Shown in pieces: positions 1 to 6,174 of a DNA stretch of 6,174 nucleotides (position 1 is the stretch's first letter; every line of letters starts with the position of its first letter). Where the stretch lies: positions 1 to 6,174 of the IMG/VR virus record IMGVR_UViG_3300020030_000001. One strand, written 5' to 3'. The DNA comes from a virus. Both the position numbers and the translations under genes were made by a program. The notes beneath the pieces were generated by a model that saw only the letters and a program-made list of their open reading frames with translations, was not told the DNA's origin and did no database searches.

Positions 1-121
1 CTACCTGTGGTAGTTTACCTCATTTCCGAGTTGATTTTTTTGACAATACTCTTGTTCTCATGTTTGATTTTAATCTCGATTCTGATGAAAGCACGCCGAA
101 AGAAGAAAGGAAGAGGAGCTA
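1..121. repeat. Terminal redundancy, copy 1 (identical to 6054-6174); circular-contig overlap
   Basis: Base-by-base comparison by eye: 1-121 (ctacctgtggtagtttacc...aggaagaggagcta) equals 6054-6174 with no mismatch. The repeat begins exactly at the window start and ends exactly at the window end. Confidence 0.95.
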
Positions 122-122
122 A
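3..122 (+). CDS. 3' end (duplicate copy) of the junction-spanning 107-aa ORF that starts at 5852; stop TAA at 120-122
   Basis: The reading frame from ATG 5852 continues through the repeat. Position 6056 corresponds to position 3, and the frame ends at TAA 120-122. Third codon positions are pyrimidine-rich, as in the other genes. Confidence 0.55.
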   Translation, partial: TCGSLPHFRVDFFDNTLVLMFDFNLDSDESTPKEERKRS

Positions 123-167
123 GATTGTAACCCGCCCTCTTGGTGGAAGAGTTTTATAACCGTGAAG

Positions 168-195
168 CTCCCGGGGGGTTTTTCTCCCCTGGGAG
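168..195 (+). other. GC-rich stem-loop (10 bp including one G:T); possible weak terminator or ssDNA hairpin
   Basis: CTCCCGGGGG (168-177) pairs with CCCCTGGGAG (186-195), loop GTTTTTCT. It lies 45 nt after the TAA of the junction ORF and is followed only by TTT, so it is not a canonical intrinsic terminator. Confidence 0.45.
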
Positions 196-212
196 TTTCC
201 GCTCGTAGACTC

Positions 213-228
213 ACCGGATTTATCCGGT
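213..228 (+). other. Perfect 6-bp hairpin ACCGGA-TTTA-TCCGGT
   Basis: Direct inspection: 213-218 is the reverse complement of 223-228, with a 4-nt loop. Confidence 0.5.
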
Positions 229-257
229 ATATACATCATGTGAAGTGGAGCCATGGA

Positions 258-298
258 GCTCGAAGACGCGGAGCGTCCCGGCCGTTAGGCCGTCGAGC
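258..298 (+). other. Predicted three-way junction (16 bp in 41 nt)
   Basis: Outer stem GCTCGA (258-263) / TCGAGC (293-298). Arm A is GACGC (265-269) - GGA - GCGTC (273-277). Arm B is CGGCC (279-283) - GTTA - GGCCG (288-292). Single-nt linkers sit at A264 and C278. Confidence 0.5.
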
Positions 299-305
299 GG
301 CGTAA

Positions 306-347
306 CGAAACAGTTTTCGCGCTCGAAAGTACCGCCTTTCGAAGCGC
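306..347 (+). other. Tandem / alternative hairpins built from alternating CGAAA and TTTCG units
   Basis: CGAAA (306-310) / TTTCG (315-319). GCGCTCGAAAG (319-329) pairs with CTTTCG-A-AGCGC (336-347), giving 11 bp with a bulged A342 and loop TACCGC. TTTCG 315-319 could pair instead with CGAAA 324-328, a mutually exclusive fold. Confidence 0.5.
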
Positions 348-366
348 AAAGTATTATTTTACGATT

Positions 367-567
367 ATGGATAAGTTTGATTTTCGCCCCTGTTTTTCTC
401 CCGTGATCGACAGTATTCCTTACCGTTTTTCTGTTGCAGCATATCGCGGTAAGAAGCGAGTTGTTATCGCCTGGTTTTCCGATGAAGAACCCGCCAATGA
501 TTACCTCATTCGCTGTCGTCTCGATTATCCCGCTATTAAGTTTGATTGTCTTAGAAGCTTCCTGTAA
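367..567 (+). CDS. Hypothetical 66-aa protein, translationally coupled to Rep
   Basis: ATG-initiated ORF. Its stop TAA (565-567) overlaps the Rep ATG (567-569) as TAATG. By hand count 52 of 66 third codon positions are pyrimidines (about 79%), matching the clear genes. I recognise no motif. Confidence 0.62.
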   Translation: MDKFDFRPCFSPVIDSIPYRFSVAAYRGKKRVVIAWFSDEEPANDYLIRCRLDYPAIKFDCLRSFL

Positions 568-1637
568 TGCCTTGTTCGTCGCCTATATGGATACGTAATC
601 GTCGCTATTTCGATAAGAAGAATCCCTGTCGTGATGGCTCAGACGTCGCAAAGTCCGCTCTGGCTCTCCGCCCCTGGGACATCGCCCGTCAGTGGCTCAT
701 GGTCCCCTGCGGAAAATGCGAAGATTGTTTGCGTCGTCAGCGTAATGATTGGTTCGTTCGGCTCGAACGCGAGCTTGCCCATTGTAAAGCTAATAGTCAG
801 CAGGCTATTTTTATTACAATAACGATTGCTCCGAAGTATTACGACAAAGCTTTGCTTGACCCTTCTTGGTTCATTCGCCGATTCAATGAACGTCTGCGCC
901 ATAAGCTAGGCCATTCGTTTAAACATGCTTTTTTTCAGGAGTTTGGGACTCACCCAGAAACAGGAAATGAACCTCGATTGCATTTTCATGGCTTTTTGTT
1001 TGGCACTAACGTTCTGTACAATACGATTCGTTCTGCTGTTCGAGACCTTGGTTTTGTCTGGCTAGCGAAAGCGACTCATAAGCGTGCTCGTTACTGCGTT
1101 AAGTATGTTACTAAACAGATTCAGTTTAATCCCGAAGAAGTTTCGGATAAATATGTTACCATAGATGGAAAAGTTACACCTTTATCTTGCCTCCTCCAAC
1201 ATCGCCGTTATACGCGAAAATTCGTATCTGCTGGCGTTGGTGATTTTCTTGGCTATATGCCTCACCCTTCTGTTCGTGTTTCGTCGTGGTCTTATTACGA
1301 TTTCGAGAAGCGTATCAATTATAATTACTCGATTCCTCGATACTATCTTAAATATCTCAAATCGGAAGACGAAGTTTGTCGTTCGATTACCGCTGCTGAT
1401 TCTTATGCACGTTTTAGCAAGTCTTCTCTGGTTCAGCGTGTTGTGTCTCTGTGTGTTGAGCGGTTCGCCCTCAATTCCTCCGTATCCCGTAGAGCGACGT
1501 ATACTTGGGAGCAGAAGCAAATGATGCGTTTTGCTGCGTCTTCTCGGGAGATGCCTGATTTTGACCCCCCTACTTGGCTAGACCTGGATATTCTTCAGTT
1601 TTGGAGAGATCATTATAAACTTCAACTAAACATTTAA
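567..1637 (+). CDS. VP4: Replication initiation protein (HUH rolling-circle endonuclease, Microviridae VP4 / phiX174 gpA-like)
   Basis: 356 aa. The N-terminal MPCSSP and VPCGKCEDCLRRQRNDW Cys cluster are typical of microvirus VP4. It has the motif IFITITI, the HUH motif LHFHGFLF (HFH = nt 981-989), and the double-tyrosine catalytic motif YCVKYVTK (nt 1092-1115), matching YxxKYxxK of phiX174 gpA. Confidence 0.93.
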   Translation: MPCSSPIWIRNRRYFDKKNPCRDGSDVAKSALALRPWDIARQWLMVPCGKCEDCLRRQRNDWFVRLERELAHCKANSQQAIFITITIAPKYYDKALLDPSWFIRRFNERLRHKLGHSFKHAFFQEFGTHPETGNEPRLHFHGFLFGTNVLYNTIRSAVRDLGFVWLAKATHKRARYCVKYVTKQIQFNPEEVSDKYVTIDGKVTPLSCLLQHRRYTRKFVSAGVGDFLGYMPHPSVRVSSWSYYDFEKRINYNYSIPRYYLKYLKSEDEVCRSITAADSYARFSKSSLVQRVVSLCVERFALNSSVSRRATYTWEQKQMMRFAASSREMPDFDPPTWLDLDILQFWRDHYKLQLNI

Positions 1638-1640
1638 TTT

Positions 1641-3446
1641 ATGGGAAAGCAACCTTTTATCTCACACGCTGTTAATGGCTACTCTCGCTACGATGTTCCC
1701 GAGAGTAAGGCCTTTACGTGCACGCCGGGTATTTTGTATCCTGTGCGAATCGATTTTATTAACGCTCGCGACCGCGTCTCTATCGAGCAAGGCATTGACG
1801 TTCGTAGCAATCCCTTGGCTGTCCCAACGTTTAATCCCTACACCATTCGTTTGCATCGTTTTTGGGTGCCATTGCAATTGTATCACCCTGAGATGAGAAC
1901 AAACAGCAGTAAGTTTGATATGAACGATTTGAGCTTGAATTGGGTGCCCGCTACGATTAATTCAGGGCCTATTATTGGCACGACGCAGGTTGCCCCTTCC
2001 AATTCTCTTTATGCTTGGCTTCGCTTTGCGAACAAGCGTATTATCGGCGACGGTATTTTGCCTTCTGTCCCCGCTGATGTTATGGCCCTGCCTTCTAACG
2101 CTGTTTCGGCTTCGTGGTATAACGCCGATCCCCTTTTAGCTTATTGGGACATCGTCCGAAATTACTATGGTTATTCGCAATGGAGCATTTTTTCTTACGC
2201 TTGGCCCGGCTCTTCGTCTTTTAAATATGACACCCAAACTAACTCGTATGCGGCTGTACTTGATTCTCCAGGCAGCTTCTTCTCGCAGTGTTTCGGAAAT
2301 CTTGAGTTCCTTGATGCTTACTACGAGAGTCAGTTTTATCCGAGTTCCGTGACTTCCTCTAATAACACGTTTAATCGGGGTAATATTTTTTTGCAGATTC
2401 TAAACAGTGATGTCCGGTTGAATTCTGGTAACCTTGGTGCTGCCGGTGACGGTTACCCAGTCGCCTCTATTACTACTCTGTTTTCTGGCGTTGTTCCCGA
2501 TGCATATGTCTCTTCGACTGAACCAACTGCTAGAGAGTCAGATATGCCGTTCTCCTCGTTGGCTGTGCAGTATTTCCCTATGGCCGTAGTTCCGTCAAAT
2601 CCTGACCGTTATAGTCGTGCTCTTCCTATTGGTGCTAATTCCGCTGTTTCGATGACTGGCATTCAGACGATCCCCCAGTTAGCCATTGCCTCTCGCCTTC
2701 AGGAGTACAAAGACCTCCTCGGTGCTGGCGGCAGTCGTTATTCCGATTGGCTGGAAACTTTCTTCGCATCGAAGATTGAACACGTTGATCGACCTAAGCT
2801 TTTGTTCAGCGCTTCGCAGACTGTTAACGTGCAGGTAGTTATGAATCAATCGGGCTTGAACAATTTTAGTGGTACCCAACCTCTCGGCCAACAGGGCGGC
2901 GCTATTGCGTTTAACGATAGATTAGGTCGACGACAATCTTATTATTTTCGCGAGCCCGGTTATATGATTGATATGTTGAGTATTCGTCCAGTTTATTATT
3001 GGGCAACGATTACACCTGATTACCTTTCATATCGCGGCGCCGATTATTTTAACCCAATCTACAATGATATTGGTTATCAGGACATTTCCACTGCTCGTGT
3101 TGCTAATCGTCCTCCGCAGGCAGATCGCGTTGCCGTTCAGGAGCCGTGTTTCAATGAATTTAGGGCTTCTTACGACGAAGTATTGGGCCAGTTGAGTAGT
3201 GTATTTGCTGCGGAAACTTCGCGGCCTCTTTACTCTTATTGGGTACAGCAGCGCAACGAGTCGTTGCTAACTCTTACTGCTGGAAACGATCGAGATTACT
3301 ATAGATTTTTGTATGTTGATATGTCGCAAGTTAATTCGCCGTTTTTTTCGAATTCGGAAGACAATTTCTTTATTAACCTTTCTTACGCAGTTCAGAGGAA
3401 GAGTTTGGTGAATAAAACTTTCGCTACTCGCTTGTCTAATCGTTAA
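1641..3446 (+). CDS. VP1: Major capsid protein (Microviridae VP1 / F-like)
   Basis: 601 aa, the largest ORF, starting 3 nt after Rep. The N-terminal segment ...FTCTPGILYPVRIDFINARDRVSI...RLHRFWVPLQLY resembles the conserved N-terminal strands of microvirus capsid proteins (recognised from memory, not aligned). Its size fits VP1 proteins with a large surface insertion. Confidence 0.88.
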   Translation: MGKQPFISHAVNGYSRYDVPESKAFTCTPGILYPVRIDFINARDRVSIEQGIDVRSNPLAVPTFNPYTIRLHRFWVPLQLYHPEMRTNSSKFDMNDLSLNWVPATINSGPIIGTTQVAPSNSLYAWLRFANKRIIGDGILPSVPADVMALPSNAVSASWYNADPLLAYWDIVRNYYGYSQWSIFSYAWPGSSSFKYDTQTNSYAAVLDSPGSFFSQCFGNLEFLDAYYESQFYPSSVTSSNNTFNRGNIFLQILNSDVRLNSGNLGAAGDGYPVASITTLFSGVVPDAYVSSTEPTARESDMPFSSLAVQYFPMAVVPSNPDRYSRALPIGANSAVSMTGIQTIPQLAIASRLQEYKDLLGAGGSRYSDWLETFFASKIEHVDRPKLLFSASQTVNVQVVMNQSGLNNFSGTQPLGQQGGAIAFNDRLGRRQSYYFREPGYMIDMLSIRPVYYWATITPDYLSYRGADYFNPIYNDIGYQDISTARVANRPPQADRVAVQEPCFNEFRASYDEVLGQLSSVFAAETSRPLYSYWVQQRNESLLTLTAGNDRDYYRFLYVDMSQVNSPFFSNSEDNFFINLSYAVQRKSLVNKTFATRLSNR

Positions 3447-3458
3447 TATACTGATTTT

Positions 3459-3755
3459 ATGGCACTTAATTGGTTACTCGAAGACACTCCCGCCTATATT
3501 TCCCGCGGGCAGCGCATTATGTCGGTTCTCGACGGTTCTGGTTCTGTCGATGTTCTTCCCGGTCGTCCCGATGTGACGGCCGATCCTTCTGATTTCGATA
3601 AGGGTGAGAAATTTAACCCTGAAATCGACTTCGACCCTAACTCTTTCTCTCGCATGGATAAGTTCGATGGCCTCGAGGTTGGCCAGGAACTCATTGATTC
3701 AGAGATAGATAGATCGAAGGCTGCTTCGAAACCCTCTAACCTTGAAGAAAAATAG
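3459..3755 (+). CDS. Acidic 98-aa protein; possible internal scaffolding (VP3-like) protein
   Basis: Strong pyrimidine bias at third codon positions. It is Asp/Glu-rich (DPSDFDKGEKFNPEIDFDPNSF...DSEIDRS) and lies directly after the capsid gene. The functional call rests only on position and charge. Confidence 0.6.
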   Translation: MALNWLLEDTPAYISRGQRIMSVLDGSGSVDVLPGRPDVTADPSDFDKGEKFNPEIDFDPNSFSRMDKFDGLEVGQELIDSEIDRSKAASKPSNLEEK

Positions 3756-3777
3756 TACCCTCTTTACTTGACGATAT

Positions 3778-3903
3778 ATGCTACGTGCGCGGACCCCTTT
3801 TGCAAGAGTCCGTGAATTGCTGAAGGTTATTGGTAACGATTGCAGGAGAGGCCGCGCATTTTTCTATCGTTCTTTAATTGTTTACACCATTGTGGCGAGG
3901 TGA
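3778..3903 (+). CDS. Candidate 41-aa arginine-rich protein (J / VP8-like DNA-binding protein?)
   Basis: ATG 3778 to TGA 3901-3903, 22 nt after the preceding stop. Translation is MLRARTPFARVRELLKVIGNDCRRGRAFFYRSLIVYTIVAR, with 10 basic and 2 acidic residues and a hydrophobic C-terminus. The third-position pyrimidine fraction is only about 59%, and the region is GC-rich and structured, so it may be non-coding. Confidence 0.35.
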   Translation: MLRARTPFARVRELLKVIGNDCRRGRAFFYRSLIVYTIVAR

Positions 3904-3911
3904 CGCATTTC

Positions 3912-3928
3912 GCGGTTCGGAGAACCGC
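3912..3928 (+). other. Perfect 7-bp hairpin with GGA triloop (GCGGTTC-GGA-GAACCGC)
   Basis: 3912-3918 is the reverse complement of 3922-3928. The loop and closing pair C-GGA-G are the same as in the hairpin at 265-277. It lies in the 77-nt gap upstream of the lipoprotein/VP2 genes. Confidence 0.55.
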
Positions 3929-3980
3929 CCCGAACGAAGTGAGGGTGCGGCACCGTAGCTTCCCTTAAATCTTTAATATC

Positions 3981-4172
3981 ATGTCAGACGTCAAACAACC
4001 GTTCTATAAATCAAAGGCTTTTTGGACGCTCGTTTCATCTATCGTTGCTGCGTTAGCTGCCTTTTTTCTTGCTTCTTGTTCGGCTCAAGCTAGGGTACAG
4101 CGTAGCGGCATTCATATTGACACTGTCCGCGTTGATTACATTATTCGTTCTAACAATTTAACTCGTATTTAG
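3981..4172 (+). CDS. Small predicted lipoprotein (63-aa precursor, about 31-aa mature peptide)
   Basis: It has a Lys-containing n-region (K5, K10, K12), a 19-residue hydrophobic core AFWTLVSSIVAALAAFFLA, and a lipobox L-A-S-C with Cys33 (TGT 4077-4079). By hand count 44 of 63 third positions are pyrimidines. Stop TAG 4170-4172 lies 1 nt before the VP2 ATG. Confidence 0.6.
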   Translation: MSDVKQPFYKSKAFWTLVSSIVAALAAFFLASCSAQARVQRSGIHIDTVRVDYIIRSNNLTRI

Positions 4173-4173
4173 T

Positions 4174-5439
4174 ATGCCTATTCCTGTTGCTACTGCCGCC
4201 GCCGCCTCATCTTTTGGTCAGGCTCTTGGACAGTCGGCTGCTTCTACCGGTACTACCGGCCTCATCTCTGGCGCTCTCGGCCAGCTTTTTGGCGGTATGA
4301 ACGCGCGTCGCCAATGGCGTTATCAGCAAAAACAAATGAAGCTTCAGCAGCAGTACGCCCTCGAGCAGATGCAGAAGCAGTCAGAACTTTCCTATGCTAA
4401 TTGGCAGAAGCAGTTTGATTACGAGAATGCCTACAATGACCCTACGAAGGTTTTCGACCGCTACTTGAAGGCTGGGGTCACCCCTGCAGCCGTTTTAGGC
4501 TCTTCGGGTGTCGGCGTTAATGCCACCATGTCCGGCGGCTCTGCCTCTATGCCCTCTGCCTCTGGTCCTTCCGGTGGTGCTCCCGTTGCCCCCGGTGGTT
4601 TTGCCGCTGCTGACCCTACTGCTATTGCGCAGAATATGGTTGCGCAGTCCACGGTTGCTCGTAACGATGCTGCTTCTAATCGTGACAACGCCGAGGCTGA
4701 TCTGCTTCGTGGAAATACACATACTATTGAATGGCGGAAGGACATCGACGAGTTGGATAAGCAGATTCGTACGCACAACGTCGACAACGCTGCTGCACTT
4801 GCTGATCTTAATCGTGCTCTTGCTAATATTCATATGGCCGACGCTGAATACGCAGATTTGATGGCTACTTATAAATTTCAAGATTTTGTTGCCCAATACA
4901 GTAAGCATGTCGAGGAAGCTGTTCAGATCAAGAAATTCAATTCAAAGTATTTTGATCAAATTTACGCCGCACAAATTGCTCGCGATTACGCTGCCGCCTA
5001 CTGTTCTGCCGCTACAGGCGACCTTGCGAAAGCCGAGTTCGATATAGCCGAAGTTCGTTTGTCCGATCTTCGTGAGTGGTTTCGCCTTAATTGGGAAGCT
5101 GAAATTGAGGTCCCTCAGGTTACTGAGTCAGGCAAGCCTACTGGTAAAACTGTTAAATTAACTGGCCGTCAGATACACGAACATCTTATGAGTATAGCCG
5201 CCGCCAACGCGTCGCAAGGCCTTTCTGCTCAATGGTTCTCCAATCGATCAGAGAAGAATGCTTTTGGTTATTCGATGGCCCGCACGGCTCTTGCCGGTGC
5301 TCTGGCTCTTTGCGGCATAGCGCTTACCAAAGGCGCATCTGCTCCTGCTGGCTACGATGAAATGCGAGATGTTTATGGCCCCTCCGGCGATCAAATTGGC
5401 GCCACGTACACTCGCCGCAGCTATTTTAGGGGAAATTGA
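4174..5439 (+). CDS. VP2: DNA pilot / minor capsid protein (Microviridae VP2 / H-like)
   Basis: 421 aa. The Ala/Gly-rich N-terminus carries glycine-zipper spacing (GLISGALGQLFGG), followed by a Gln-rich helical segment RRQWRYQQKQMKLQQQYALEQMQKQ. YLKAGVTPAAVLG resembles the AG-x-NP segment common in gokushovirus VP2. A G/S/A/P low-complexity linker spans aa 109-147 (nt 4498-4614). Confidence 0.78.
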   Translation: MPIPVATAAAASSFGQALGQSAASTGTTGLISGALGQLFGGMNARRQWRYQQKQMKLQQQYALEQMQKQSELSYANWQKQFDYENAYNDPTKVFDRYLKAGVTPAAVLGSSGVGVNATMSGGSASMPSASGPSGGAPVAPGGFAAADPTAIAQNMVAQSTVARNDAASNRDNAEADLLRGNTHTIEWRKDIDELDKQIRTHNVDNAAALADLNRALANIHMADAEYADLMATYKFQDFVAQYSKHVEEAVQIKKFNSKYFDQIYAAQIARDYAAAYCSAATGDLAKAEFDIAEVRLSDLREWFRLNWEAEIEVPQVTESGKPTGKTVKLTGRQIHEHLMSIAAANASQGLSAQWFSNRSEKNAFGYSMARTALAGALALCGIALTKGASAPAGYDEMRDVYGPSGDQIGATYTRRSYFRGN

Positions 5440-5462
5440 ACAATTTTTCCAACCTTTTGACC

Positions 5463-5493
5463 TTTGCGTTTGTTCTTTTTGGTTGTATCTTTG
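5463..5493 (+). promoter_or_regulatory. Bacteroidota-type promoter candidate (-33 TTTG / -7 TAnnTTTG)
   Basis: TTTG (5463-5466), a 19-nt spacer, then TATCTTTG (5486-5493), ending 26 nt upstream of ATG 5520. It sits in the 80-nt non-coding gap after VP2. The consensus and spacing are recalled from the Bacteroides promoter literature. Confidence 0.4.
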
Positions 5494-5519
5494 TGCTGTA
5501 AACCAATAACCTCAATACT

Positions 5520-5840
5520 ATGAAAAAAGGAAGTAAGTATTTCAAGGCTGGCGATTTGATTGTCGACGTTCTCGATTATGCTTTTACCGAGTGGCTCGTC
5601 CGCCAGGGAATATTCGTCGCCTTTAAGACGAACTACGATGTCGTCGTTTCGCCCTACGGGGGTTTTCGCGACCGTTTGCGCGCCCATATTCGGCGTTCTC
5701 TTTGCGACCCGAGTCTAGGCCCTACCTACCTCATTTCTACCGCTTTCTTGTTTGACACGACGCCCGAGGGTTATGATTTTTGGAGGAAGTACTCTGACGC
5801 TTGGAAGCGTTTTTATCTCAGATTTCAATCGCAAATTTAA
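5520..5840 (+). CDS. Hypothetical 106-aa basic protein (orphan)
   Basis: ATG-initiated ORF with strongly pyrimidine-rich third positions, preceded by the promoter-like motif. It is rich in aromatic residues (TPEGYDFWRKYSDAWKRFYLRF). I recognise no family. Confidence 0.6.
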   Translation: MKKGSKYFKAGDLIVDVLDYAFTEWLVRQGIFVAFKTNYDVVVSPYGGFRDRLRAHIRRSLCDPSLGPTYLISTAFLFDTTPEGYDFWRKYSDAWKRFYLRFQSQI

Positions 5841-5851
5841 ATTACATTGCT

Positions 5852-6174
5852 ATGACACAGATTCACGTTGTTATTCGCCGCGTCAACCCGGCTCTCAAAA
5901 TTGACCTCGCCCAGGTAGGCTATCTCAAGGATGATCAATTCGTATCCCTTCCGCTCAGTGCTCTTGTGGATACCCCTATCGCGCGTTTTCTGAATAGCTC
6001 TTTCATTAGCGATTCGCTTTACGTCGATCATTCAGAAATTTTTGAACTTGTCACTACCTGTGGTAGTTTACCTCATTTCCGAGTTGATTTTTTTGACAAT
6101 ACTCTTGTTCTCATGTTTGATTTTAATCTCGATTCTGATGAAAGCACGCCGAAAGAAGAAAGGAAGAGGAGCTA
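5852..6174 (+). CDS. Hypothetical 107-aa protein spanning the circular junction (truncated by the window edge; stop TAA at 120-122)
   Basis: ATG 5852 lies 11 nt after the previous stop. The frame stays open to the window end and closes at TAA 120-122 in the other repeat copy. Translation is MTQIHVVIRRVNPALKIDLAQVGYLKDDQFVSLPLSALVDTPIARFLNSSFISDSLYVDHSEIFELVTTCGSLPHFRVDFFDNTLVLMFDFNLDSDESTPKEERKRS. Third positions are very pyrimidine-rich. It is absent from the ORF track only because no stop occurs inside the window. Confidence 0.6.
   Translation, partial: MTQIHVVIRRVNPALKIDLAQVGYLKDDQFVSLPLSALVDTPIARFLNSSFISDSLYVDHSEIFELVTTCGSLPHFRVDFFDNTLVLMFDFNLDSDESTPKEERKRS
6054..6174. repeat. Terminal redundancy, copy 2 (identical to 1-121)
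   Basis: Same comparison as for 1-121. Confidence 0.95.

Follow-up and report, generated by a model that had tools for sequence, protein, structure and literature searches.

The stretch of DNA analyzed here, called the window throughout, comprises 6,174 nucleotides (nt) of the IMG/VR virus record IMGVR_UViG_3300020030_000001 (positions 1 to 6,174), and our subject is a small gene at 3981-4172 that lies immediately upstream of the gene for the VP2 DNA pilot protein (4174-5439; PHROG pilot protein match, E=1.8e-7). Both are on the + strand, as are all the genes listed for the window. The open reading frame (ORF) starts with the ATG at 3981, ends with the stop codon TAG at 4170-4172 and specifies a protein of 63 residues, MSDVKQPFYKSKAFWTLVSSIVAALAAFFLASCSAQARVQRSGIHIDTVRVDYIIRSNNLTRI. 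Comparative evidence marks these 63 codons as coding, and we hold with high confidence that they are a real gene for a lipoprotein of the signal peptidase II (SPase II) type. The predicted signal peptide occupies codons 1-32 (3981..4076, + strand) and consists of an n-region, MSDVKQPFYKSK, an h-region, AFWTLVSSIVAALAAFFLA, and then a serine. Cleavage by SPase II is predicted before C33 of the lipobox L30-A31-S32-C33 (4068..4079, + strand), which would leave a mature lipopeptide of 31 residues, CSAQARVQRSGIHIDTVRVDYIIRSNNLTRI (4077..4169, + strand), with the predicted fold of a cationic β-hairpin.

Lipoprotein architecture and conservation

The n-region (residues 1-12) has a net charge of +2, and the hydrophobic core, A13-A31, is an uninterrupted run of 19 residues, with a mean Kyte-Doolittle value of 1.98 over residues 13-32. 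The sequence LASC fits the lipobox consensus [LVI][ASTVI][GAS]C (quoted in PMC6139136), and C33 lies inside the range of about 15-35 residues from the start. An earlier note on this DNA had described a type II signal peptide with a basic n-region, a 19-residue core, the lipobox LASC and a 31-residue mature peptide, and all of these are present as described. When every ATG-initiated ORF of at least 40 residues on both strands was scanned with a PROSITE-style prokaryotic lipoprotein rule modeled on PS51257, the ORF at 3981-4172 was the only one in the window to match. At least one match to the same rule arose in 13.5% of shuffled genomes, so the window sequence alone is only suggestive as evidence for a lipoprotein.

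The protein family carries the same signature. The lipobox cysteine is kept throughout, and the residue at position -1 is small in 162/162 family proteins (serine in 150, glycine in 7 and alanine in 5); position -3 is leucine in 128/162, and position +2 is small and never aspartate. Three proteins (P0148, P0157 and P0164) have signal peptides that are unrelated in sequence, yet they retain a cysteine with serine at -1 after a hydrophobic stretch. The invariant residues of the family alignment are M1, C33, four positions in the signal peptide (K12, F14, W15 and F29) and three, G43, H45 and D47, in and beside the hairpin turn. AlphaFold2, run on a 19-sequence alignment, predicted a helix at residues 12-32 with a predicted local distance difference test score (pLDDT) of 91-94 and a single β-hairpin with strands at residues 33-42 and 48-57 (mean pLDDT 80.6).

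The mature peptide has a net charge of +3 and begins CSAQARVQRSG. In Bacteroidota, surface lipoproteins carry an acidic lipoprotein export signal directly after the +1 cysteine. No acidic residues stand at that place in the window protein, whose first acidic residue is D47, and the earlier statement that no Bacteroidota surface-export signal is evident therefore stands. Because the mature lipopeptide is basic and lacks this signal, it should face the periplasm.

The comparative data (the retention of the ORF, the selection on its codons and its presence in related genomes) make the reality of the gene conclusive. Its 63 codons are kept in 84/84 genomes found with the peptide and its ATG in 83 of them; 80 IMG/VR and three GenBank genomes all retain the 63-codon ORF at the same place. 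By the Nei-Gojobori method, the ratio of nonsynonymous to synonymous substitution rates (dN/dS) is 0.068 in the frame of the ORF versus 2.4 and 2.7 in the other two frames, at a synonymous divergence (dS) of about 1.4; the values in the other frames exclude an overlapping gene at 3981-4172. A survey of related microviruses, which the earlier note had proposed, found the gene in 148 of 150 genomes that had been picked for the peptide or for similarity in VP1. The two genomes that lack it are truncated contigs, one of them broken exactly at this locus, so that the gene is present in 148/148 informative genomes. A protein search returned 366 clusters at 90% identity, and the lipoprotein gene is a core gene of this gut microvirus clade. 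The reading of the ORF as a chance frame or gene-calling artifact could draw on the frequency of rule matches in shuffled genomes and on the GenBank records of several relatives in which the gene was left unannotated, but it is refuted by the low dN/dS at this depth of divergence, by the length and start kept across the 84 genomes, by the occurrence in every informative genome and by homologs in lineages that share only 22-27% core-protein identity.

The gene occurs in 32 GenBank phage records, where it is labeled 'hypothetical' or is unannotated; it is unannotated, for example, in MG945790, MG945813, Tortoise microvirus 7 and bajarodmic virus 634 (L001, L002, L089 and L090). One nr record, a third-party annotation (TPA; P0024), is already named 'lipoprotein'. 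In MG945680 (L088, MG945680.1, 3402-5030), a feature designated 'similar to VP2' starts farther upstream, in a different frame, and extends over the lipoprotein gene. A lipoprotein-VP2 fusion in records of this type was considered and rejected, since the annotated 'VP2' ORF merely extends upstream in another frame.

Within the gene, conservation is higher in the signal peptide than in the mature peptide, with a dN/dS of 0.051 versus 0.086 and a majority-residue frequency of 0.83 in the h-region versus 0.60 in the mature part. The same signal peptide also occurs with different mature peptides at the same locus (L091-L094; also P0171, P0172 and P0174). In type B, found in the close relatives MG945151, MG945170, Dulem virus 225 and bajarodmic virus 1104, an ORF of 65 residues joins the signal peptide to an unrelated mature peptide, CTARHYVVQSASSIKSGDTTRTTITYEQIGNFKRP. 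P0171 and P0172 represent further mature types, and at least three unrelated hairpin peptides share the one signal peptide. Each alternative mature peptide is basic and about 30 residues long and, by inspection, looks like a strand, a Gly/Asp turn and a second strand. On account of the lower dN/dS, the more uniform h-region and the reuse with different peptides, the signal peptide appears to be functional in its own right. A separate observation concerns P0173, a repetitive, β-rich protein of 950 residues in which the motif G[VL]H[TS]DT[VI]Q[VL]DYN[DN]G resembles the turn and second strand of the type-A peptide (GVHIDTVRVDY); the match to the type-A lipopeptide is weak (E=6e-4) and may reflect convergent hairpin chemistry.

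Genome context, upstream hairpin and overprinted ORF

The ATG of VP2 at 4174 follows the lipoprotein stop codon after a gap of 1 nt, and the junction, TAGTATG or TAATATG, is kept among relatives. The earlier note had recorded this gap and suggested co-expression with VP2; given the 1-nt distance and the preserved junction, co-expression and translational coupling of the two genes are likely. Neither a Bacteroidetes -7 promoter box nor a sigma-70 promoter was found directly upstream of the lipoprotein gene.

A conserved, structured and terminator-like element lies upstream of the lipoprotein gene at 3785-3866 (+ strand). It contains a hairpin at 3785-3859 (dG -38.3 kcal/mol, z=-3.47) that is followed by the T-run TTTTT at 3860-3864, and compensatory base-pair changes are seen in the hairpin among relatives; the element has no Rfam family match. 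By analogy with phiX174, the element resembles an attenuating terminator that would separate the abundant VP1/VP3 products from the low-copy lipoprotein and VP2 genes; alternatively, it may be a signal for the replication or packaging of single-stranded DNA (ssDNA). The same region has given rise to spurious gene models. The '41-aa basic ORF' at 3778-3903 has no codon periodicity (entropy 0.19/0.17/0.28) and no third-position wobble, and the spacing from the upstream ATG to the lipoprotein ATG covers all three frames (111, 112 and 203-208 nt). The '100-aa' forms that make up about half of the database matches were therefore rejected as a true long N-terminus: the missing periodicity, the variable spacing and the covarying hairpin identify both them and the 41-aa ORF as artifacts.

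A further feature that bears on function is an ORF of 119 codons at 1165-1524 (+ strand), overprinted in another frame within VP4/Rep (567-1637). Its product would have two hydrophobic segments resembling transmembrane (TM) helices and a basic C-terminus. The 119 codons and the ATG are retained in all 74 copies uncut by a contig end, including those of two 50%-identical relatives, and the synonymous diversity of VP4/Rep falls from 0.46 to 0.19 exactly across 1165-1524 (p=8e-26). This collapse of synonymous diversity makes it probable that the ORF is a real overlapping gene in an arrangement like that of phiX174 E and K, although it has no Pfam or PHROG match. The earlier note had started from the absence of a phiX174 E-like lysis gene, which the conserved overprinted two-TM ORF contradicts. 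Its companion claim, that no endolysin or peptidase is encoded as a standalone gene, holds: Pfam and PHROGs scans of the standalone ORFs detected no peptidase, endolysin or holin family. The overprinted ORF is thus possible both as a partner of the lipoprotein and as a rival lysis effector.

The window represents a complete microvirus genome: its two ends, 1-121 and 6054-6174, form an exact direct repeat of 121 nt, the assembly signature of a circular genome, and the true circle measures 6053 nt. Linear ORF lists miss ORFs that cross the junction, such as that of 107 residues at 5852->122, which runs past the end of the window. Between VP4/Rep and the hairpin lie the VP1 capsid gene (1641-3446) and a 98-residue acidic ORF (3459-3755) that is "VP3-like" by position only. 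The remaining ORFs encode 106 residues (5520-5840), 66 residues (367-567) and a basic peptide of 24 residues (85-159), the first part of the last being repeated as 6138-6174 in the terminal repeat. Two candidate assignments in this region did not hold. The ORF 5852->122 was compared with 'ORF-X' of the prophage lineage described below and, because BLASTP gave no significant similarity, is a positional counterpart only. The hydrophobic stretch of window ORF 7-159 was rejected as an E-like TM protein in the window clade, where it is variable and often interrupted by stop codons and only the 24-residue peptide is conserved. Megablast identified relatives at about 75% nucleotide identity in fecal viromes of pig, musk deer, civet, rodent and lemur.

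Exchange between microvirus lineages and long forms

A search with the lipoprotein alignment identified two homologs in Alistipes prophages, one in A. montrealensis kh20 and one in an uncultured Alistipes sp.; a third prophage has the same flanking host genes as that of A. montrealensis. In these prophage microviruses, the lipoprotein module lies upstream of Rep and opens an ORF of about 200 codons. The lipoprotein module of the window shares 80% identity with that of the A. montrealensis prophage, as against 27% for VP4, 26% for VP1 and 22% for VP2. A disparity of this size (80% versus 22-27%) is, in sequence terms, the signature of the exchange of a host-adapted cassette, and the same pattern has been reported for a microviral lysis peptidase (74% versus 21%; Kirchberger 2022, PMC9239249). 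A host search with VP1 in GTDB genomes gave no match; the module shared with the Alistipes prophages makes Alistipes (Bacteroidota) the probable host of the window phage. The prophages L085 and L086 lie between the same host genes, those for a formate/nitrite transporter and an HTH_3 protein, in opposite relative orientations. Such a placement fits integration at a dif-like site, a mode that has been proposed for microviral proviruses of Bacteroidetes (PMC3091885).

The distant homologs found in a representative-library search are 180-220 residues long and belong to a different microvirus lineage, one that includes the Alistipes prophages and in which the ORF lies between VP2 and VP4. Long forms of the gene are located at L084 (1512-2114), L085 (6001-6606), L086 (6977-7585) and L089 (4688-5320) and among L153-L159, and the lipoprotein module and a J-like tail are joined in one open frame at 10 long-form loci and in about 34 representative proteins. 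Downstream of the module, these proteins have a Ser/Thr/Pro/Leu-rich linker of about 100 residues, a hydrophobic stretch of 12-16 residues and a basic C-terminal tail. In pairs of related forms, the ratio of nonsynonymous to synonymous polymorphism (pN/pS) in the protein's own frame is 0.10-0.18 over the first 62 codons and 0-0.17 over the last 30 or so. Over the middle 100 or so codons, the lipoprotein frame is unconstrained (pN/pS 1.2-2.2), and purifying selection falls on the frame of the overprinted gene ORF-X (pN/pS 0.15-0.16).

In the long forms, the tail RRGGRRGKPRPK.K.IPLGGSHL is homologous to a free-standing 24-residue ORF of the window, MKARRKKKGRGAKIVTRPLGGRVL, which we read as a J/VP8-like DNA-binding peptide. 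The initiating methionine of MKARRKKKGRGAKIVTRPLGGRVL is kept in the listed genomes of the window clade, and in many of them a stop codon precedes it by 2-4 codons. In L157 and the window clade, where the lipoprotein ORF is unfused, the J-like peptide has its own ATG; in the fused tails that were inspected, no start codon immediately precedes the basic motif. A J/VP8-like peptide was not detectable in the Bacteroidetes microviral proviruses described by Krupovic and Forterre (PMC3091885).

Candidate function and comparison with known systems

Searches of Pfam, NCBIfam, PHROGs and PADLOC with the window protein, the long forms and type B gave nothing significant. Pfam returned no match at E<=1 for the window protein, Lysis_col (PF02402) included, and likewise none for the long and type-B relatives; the best result overall, PADLOC PDC-M02A at E=0.003-0.01 over the lipobox and mature region, was treated as noise. 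A profile search against PDB sequences produced chance matches only (E>1). The structural search that the earlier note had suggested was run with the AlphaFold2 model. Foldseek found nothing in the PDB at E<=0.001, with no Llp entry in the top 50, and its only matches in BFVD were two Microviridae proteins, both 'uncharacterized' and members of this family; the lysis and exclusion proteins that the note had offered as analogs were not among the matches. In all, Pfam, NCBIfam, PDB sequences and Foldseek indicated no homology to colicin lysis proteins, to Llp or Cor, or to spanins. Every sequence test bears out the structural reading of the earlier note, and its functional reading, lysis or superinfection exclusion, keeps the standing of a candidate. 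A literature search found no description of a microvirus lipoprotein or of a lysis protein with a lipobox.

Under the mechanism that we put forward, the precursor would pass through Sec, receive a lipid on C33 and be cleaved by SPase II. This processing would yield two products, one of them a released signal peptide of 32 residues, on whose own sequence selection acts. The product would be made late and at a low, VP2-like level, and it would act on the host envelope as a lysis or release effector of the phage in the manner of the colicin lysis proteins, or bacteriocin release proteins (BRPs), possibly jointly with the two-TM protein overprinted in Rep. The module is host-adapted and portable and has passed between microvirus lineages with 22-27% core-protein identity. 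A BRP-like, envelope-permeabilizing role in lysis or release, possibly shared with the overprinted ORF, is the assignment that we tentatively prefer, while rating it somewhat short of probable. We favor it, as essential and envelope-directed, over an accessory exclusion function on the indirect grounds that the gene is universal in the informative genomes and under strong purifying selection, with the signal peptide as its most conserved part. Further reasons are that the module is exchanged between lineages as reported for lysis peptidases, that the genome encodes no recognizable muralytic enzyme and that the gene lies in a low-level, late-gene context.

Several points weigh against a lysis or release role. 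No homology to any lysis protein was detectable in Pfam, PDB sequences or Foldseek; we know of no single-gene lysis protein that is a lipoprotein; and the mechanism of the colicin lysis proteins depends on the outer-membrane phospholipase OmpLA. The overprinted 119-residue ORF could be the true lysis gene. In some members, the type-A peptide is carried on unrelated signal peptides, so that the conserved signal peptide is not indispensable. The swapping of mature peptides (types A, B and C) is also expected of a receptor-specific exclusion protein. Finally, the phage has temperate relatives, and the gene comes first in the prophage, beside the junction, a position typical of genes expressed in the lysogen.

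The last two points lead to the alternative that survives best, namely that the lipoprotein mediates superinfection exclusion or receptor masking in the manner of T5 Llp and phi80 Cor, blocking adsorption or DNA entry and protecting progeny from debris. We regard this as unlikely. The occurrence of mature types A, B and C on one signal peptide in close relatives looks like specificity switching; the gene adjoins the pilot gene VP2 in the window and lies at the prophage edge in temperate relatives; and the absence of acidic residues after the cysteine fits a periplasm-facing lipoprotein. Small phage lipoproteins with exactly such a role exist, and Llp acts on FhuA from the periplasmic side, altering its conformation (PMC9586334). 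Against this, the gene is present in 148/148 informative genomes at a dN/dS of 0.07 in a genome of only 6 kb. Exclusion genes are usually sporadic and fast-evolving. The type-A peptide is, moreover, 73-80% identical across phages whose VP1 proteins are only 21-26% identical, which argues against tight coupling to a receptor; if it served for targeting alone, the signal peptide should not exceed the effector peptide in conservation; and the Foldseek search of the PDB recovered no Llp complex, with nothing at E<=0.001.

If the conservation of the helix is given most weight, the protein could instead be an uncleaved signal-anchored 'protein antibiotic' whose N-terminal helix stays in the membrane permanently and binds and inhibits a membrane enzyme that builds the envelope, with the cysteine and hairpin as accessories; phiX174 E inhibits MraY and LysM inhibits MurJ. 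The helix is indeed the most conserved part and holds the invariant K12, F14, W15 and F29, and the C-terminal part is replaceable by unrelated peptides, much as phiX174 E tolerates replacement of its C-terminal domain. Yet the cysteine is invariant, the -1 residue is serine, glycine or alanine in 162/162 proteins, and even unrelated helices keep the cysteine with serine at -1; since this pattern points to processing by SPase II and not to contact between helix and target, we consider an uncleaved anchor improbable. The basic n-region also predicts an N-in topology, opposite to that of E.

A similarly low probability attaches to an outer-membrane step in multi-component lysis, spanin- or disruptin-like, in which the lipopeptide would break the outer membrane only once the inner membrane or the wall had been compromised by another phage protein such as the product of the overprinted ORF, with the long forms serving as u-spanin-like tethers. 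The lipoprotein signal is of outer-membrane type, the conserved two-TM ORF is available as a holin-like partner, and the lipobox, linker, hydrophobic stretch and basic tail of the long forms reproduce the topology of a u-spanin as described in PMC6139136. On the other side, the genome has no endolysin and no i-spanin-type partner adjacent to or inside the gene, whose off-frames are unconstrained, and a hairpin of 31 residues cannot span the periplasm. The 'C-terminal anchor' of the long forms is itself doubtful, since the basic tail corresponds in the window clade to the free 24-residue J/VP8-like peptide without a TM segment, and a hydrophobic stretch of 12-16 residues is short for a TM domain (TMD).

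Weakest among these is an involvement in assembling virions or packaging the genome at the membrane, where the lipoprotein might, for instance, tether or deliver the J/VP8-like peptide. The shared frame of module and J-like tail in sister lineages (10 loci, about 34 proteins) might suggest such a role, which we judge very improbable: in the window clade, about 2 kb separates the two genes, which are clearly independent; a lipoprotein that is exported and a DNA-packaging peptide that stays in the cytoplasm do not share a location; and the middle of the long ORF is unconstrained (pN/pS 1.2-2.2), so that the fusion may only serve translation of the tail.

The boldest form of the proposed lysis or release role would make this a new class of phage lysis in ssDNA phages of Bacteroidota, built on a lipoprotein module of one or two genes, in which a conserved, released signal peptide and a cationic hairpin lipopeptide of about 30 residues kill or open the cell without a muralytic enzyme, and whose host-specific cassette is exchanged across lineages and, in sister lineages, read through an overprinted gene into the J/VP8-like peptide. 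We offer this as a speculative possibility that is more doubtful than not. The means by which microviruses other than phiX174 lyse their hosts have long been an open question, and members of this clade abound in the gut viromes of mammals and reptiles (pig, rodent, lemur, civet, musk deer and tortoise). The analysis supplies two cleanly mutable lysis or envelope candidates, the lipoprotein gene and the overprinted two-TM gene, and the lipoprotein module is small enough to be synthesized. If a lipopeptide or signal peptide does kill Bacteroidota, it would represent a new envelope-targeting principle in a phylum whose phage lysis is poorly studied; if the protein proves to be an exclusion factor, it would, to our knowledge, be the first lipoprotein of that kind described in an ssDNA phage. 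Database artifacts are also corrected here, namely the '100-aa' forms, the unannotated genes and the VP2 annotation of MG945680.

Among known systems, the colicin lysis proteins offer the closest parallel to the proposed role. A BRP is made as a 47-residue precursor with a 19-residue signal peptide and a mature lipopeptide of about 28 residues, which activates the outer-membrane phospholipase A and is lethal when overexpressed (PMC2896534); titles of studies in the reference list of that paper refer to a stable, lethal BRP signal peptide. The window protein is likewise a very small prolipoprotein (63, 32 and 31 residues for precursor, signal and mature peptide). Both would face the periplasm, the signal peptide of each appears to matter in itself, and each would be a low-level product from the end of an operon, behind a terminator-like hairpin. 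They differ in that there is no sequence similarity (Pfam, E<=1), that the window signal peptide is much longer, that its mature part is predicted to be a basic β-hairpin and that the colicin genes belong to plasmids of Enterobacteria, as opposed to an ssDNA phage of Bacteroidota here.

T5 Llp and the Cor proteins of phi80 and N15 are, like the window protein, small phage lipoproteins on the periplasmic side that are encoded beside a gene related to entry or to the receptor. The window gene is, in contrast, universal and slowly evolving and not accessory, and neither Llp nor Cor was found among the PDB sequence or Foldseek matches. The mature forms of Llp and Cor are also about twice as long as the window lipopeptide.

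With the o-spanin Rz1 and the u-spanin T1 gp11, the window protein shares an N-terminal lipobox, and its long-form relatives have the layout of a u-spanin (PMC6139136). Unlike a two-component spanin gene, however, the window gene is flanked by a non-coding hairpin upstream and VP2 downstream, with no cassette of i-spanin, holin and endolysin. The window protein differs from T1 gp11 in ending after the hairpin without a C-terminal TMD, which leaves it too short to bridge the membranes, and the long forms differ from spanins in that their C-terminal tail is homologous to a free 24-residue J/VP8-like peptide.

The lysis protein E of phiX174 represents the only elucidated microvirus lysis mechanism named in PMC3394797 and PMC9239249, with M15 peptidases as possible endolysins elsewhere. 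It resembles the window protein as a small membrane-targeted protein of a tiny phage without a muralytic enzyme, with a conserved TM helix and a tolerant C-terminal part. The lipoprotein gene, unlike the overprinted E, overlaps nothing and has a high dS; its product has a lipobox, the opposite predicted topology and no sequence match to E. The E-like feature of the window genome is the overprinted ORF at 1165-1524. Judged by these analogies, the lipoprotein would belong to an already known kind, that of small phage- or plasmid-encoded lipoproteins acting on the envelope. What is new here is such a candidate envelope-acting lipoprotein in a virus group and host phylum without a described one, with a modular design and no family homology.

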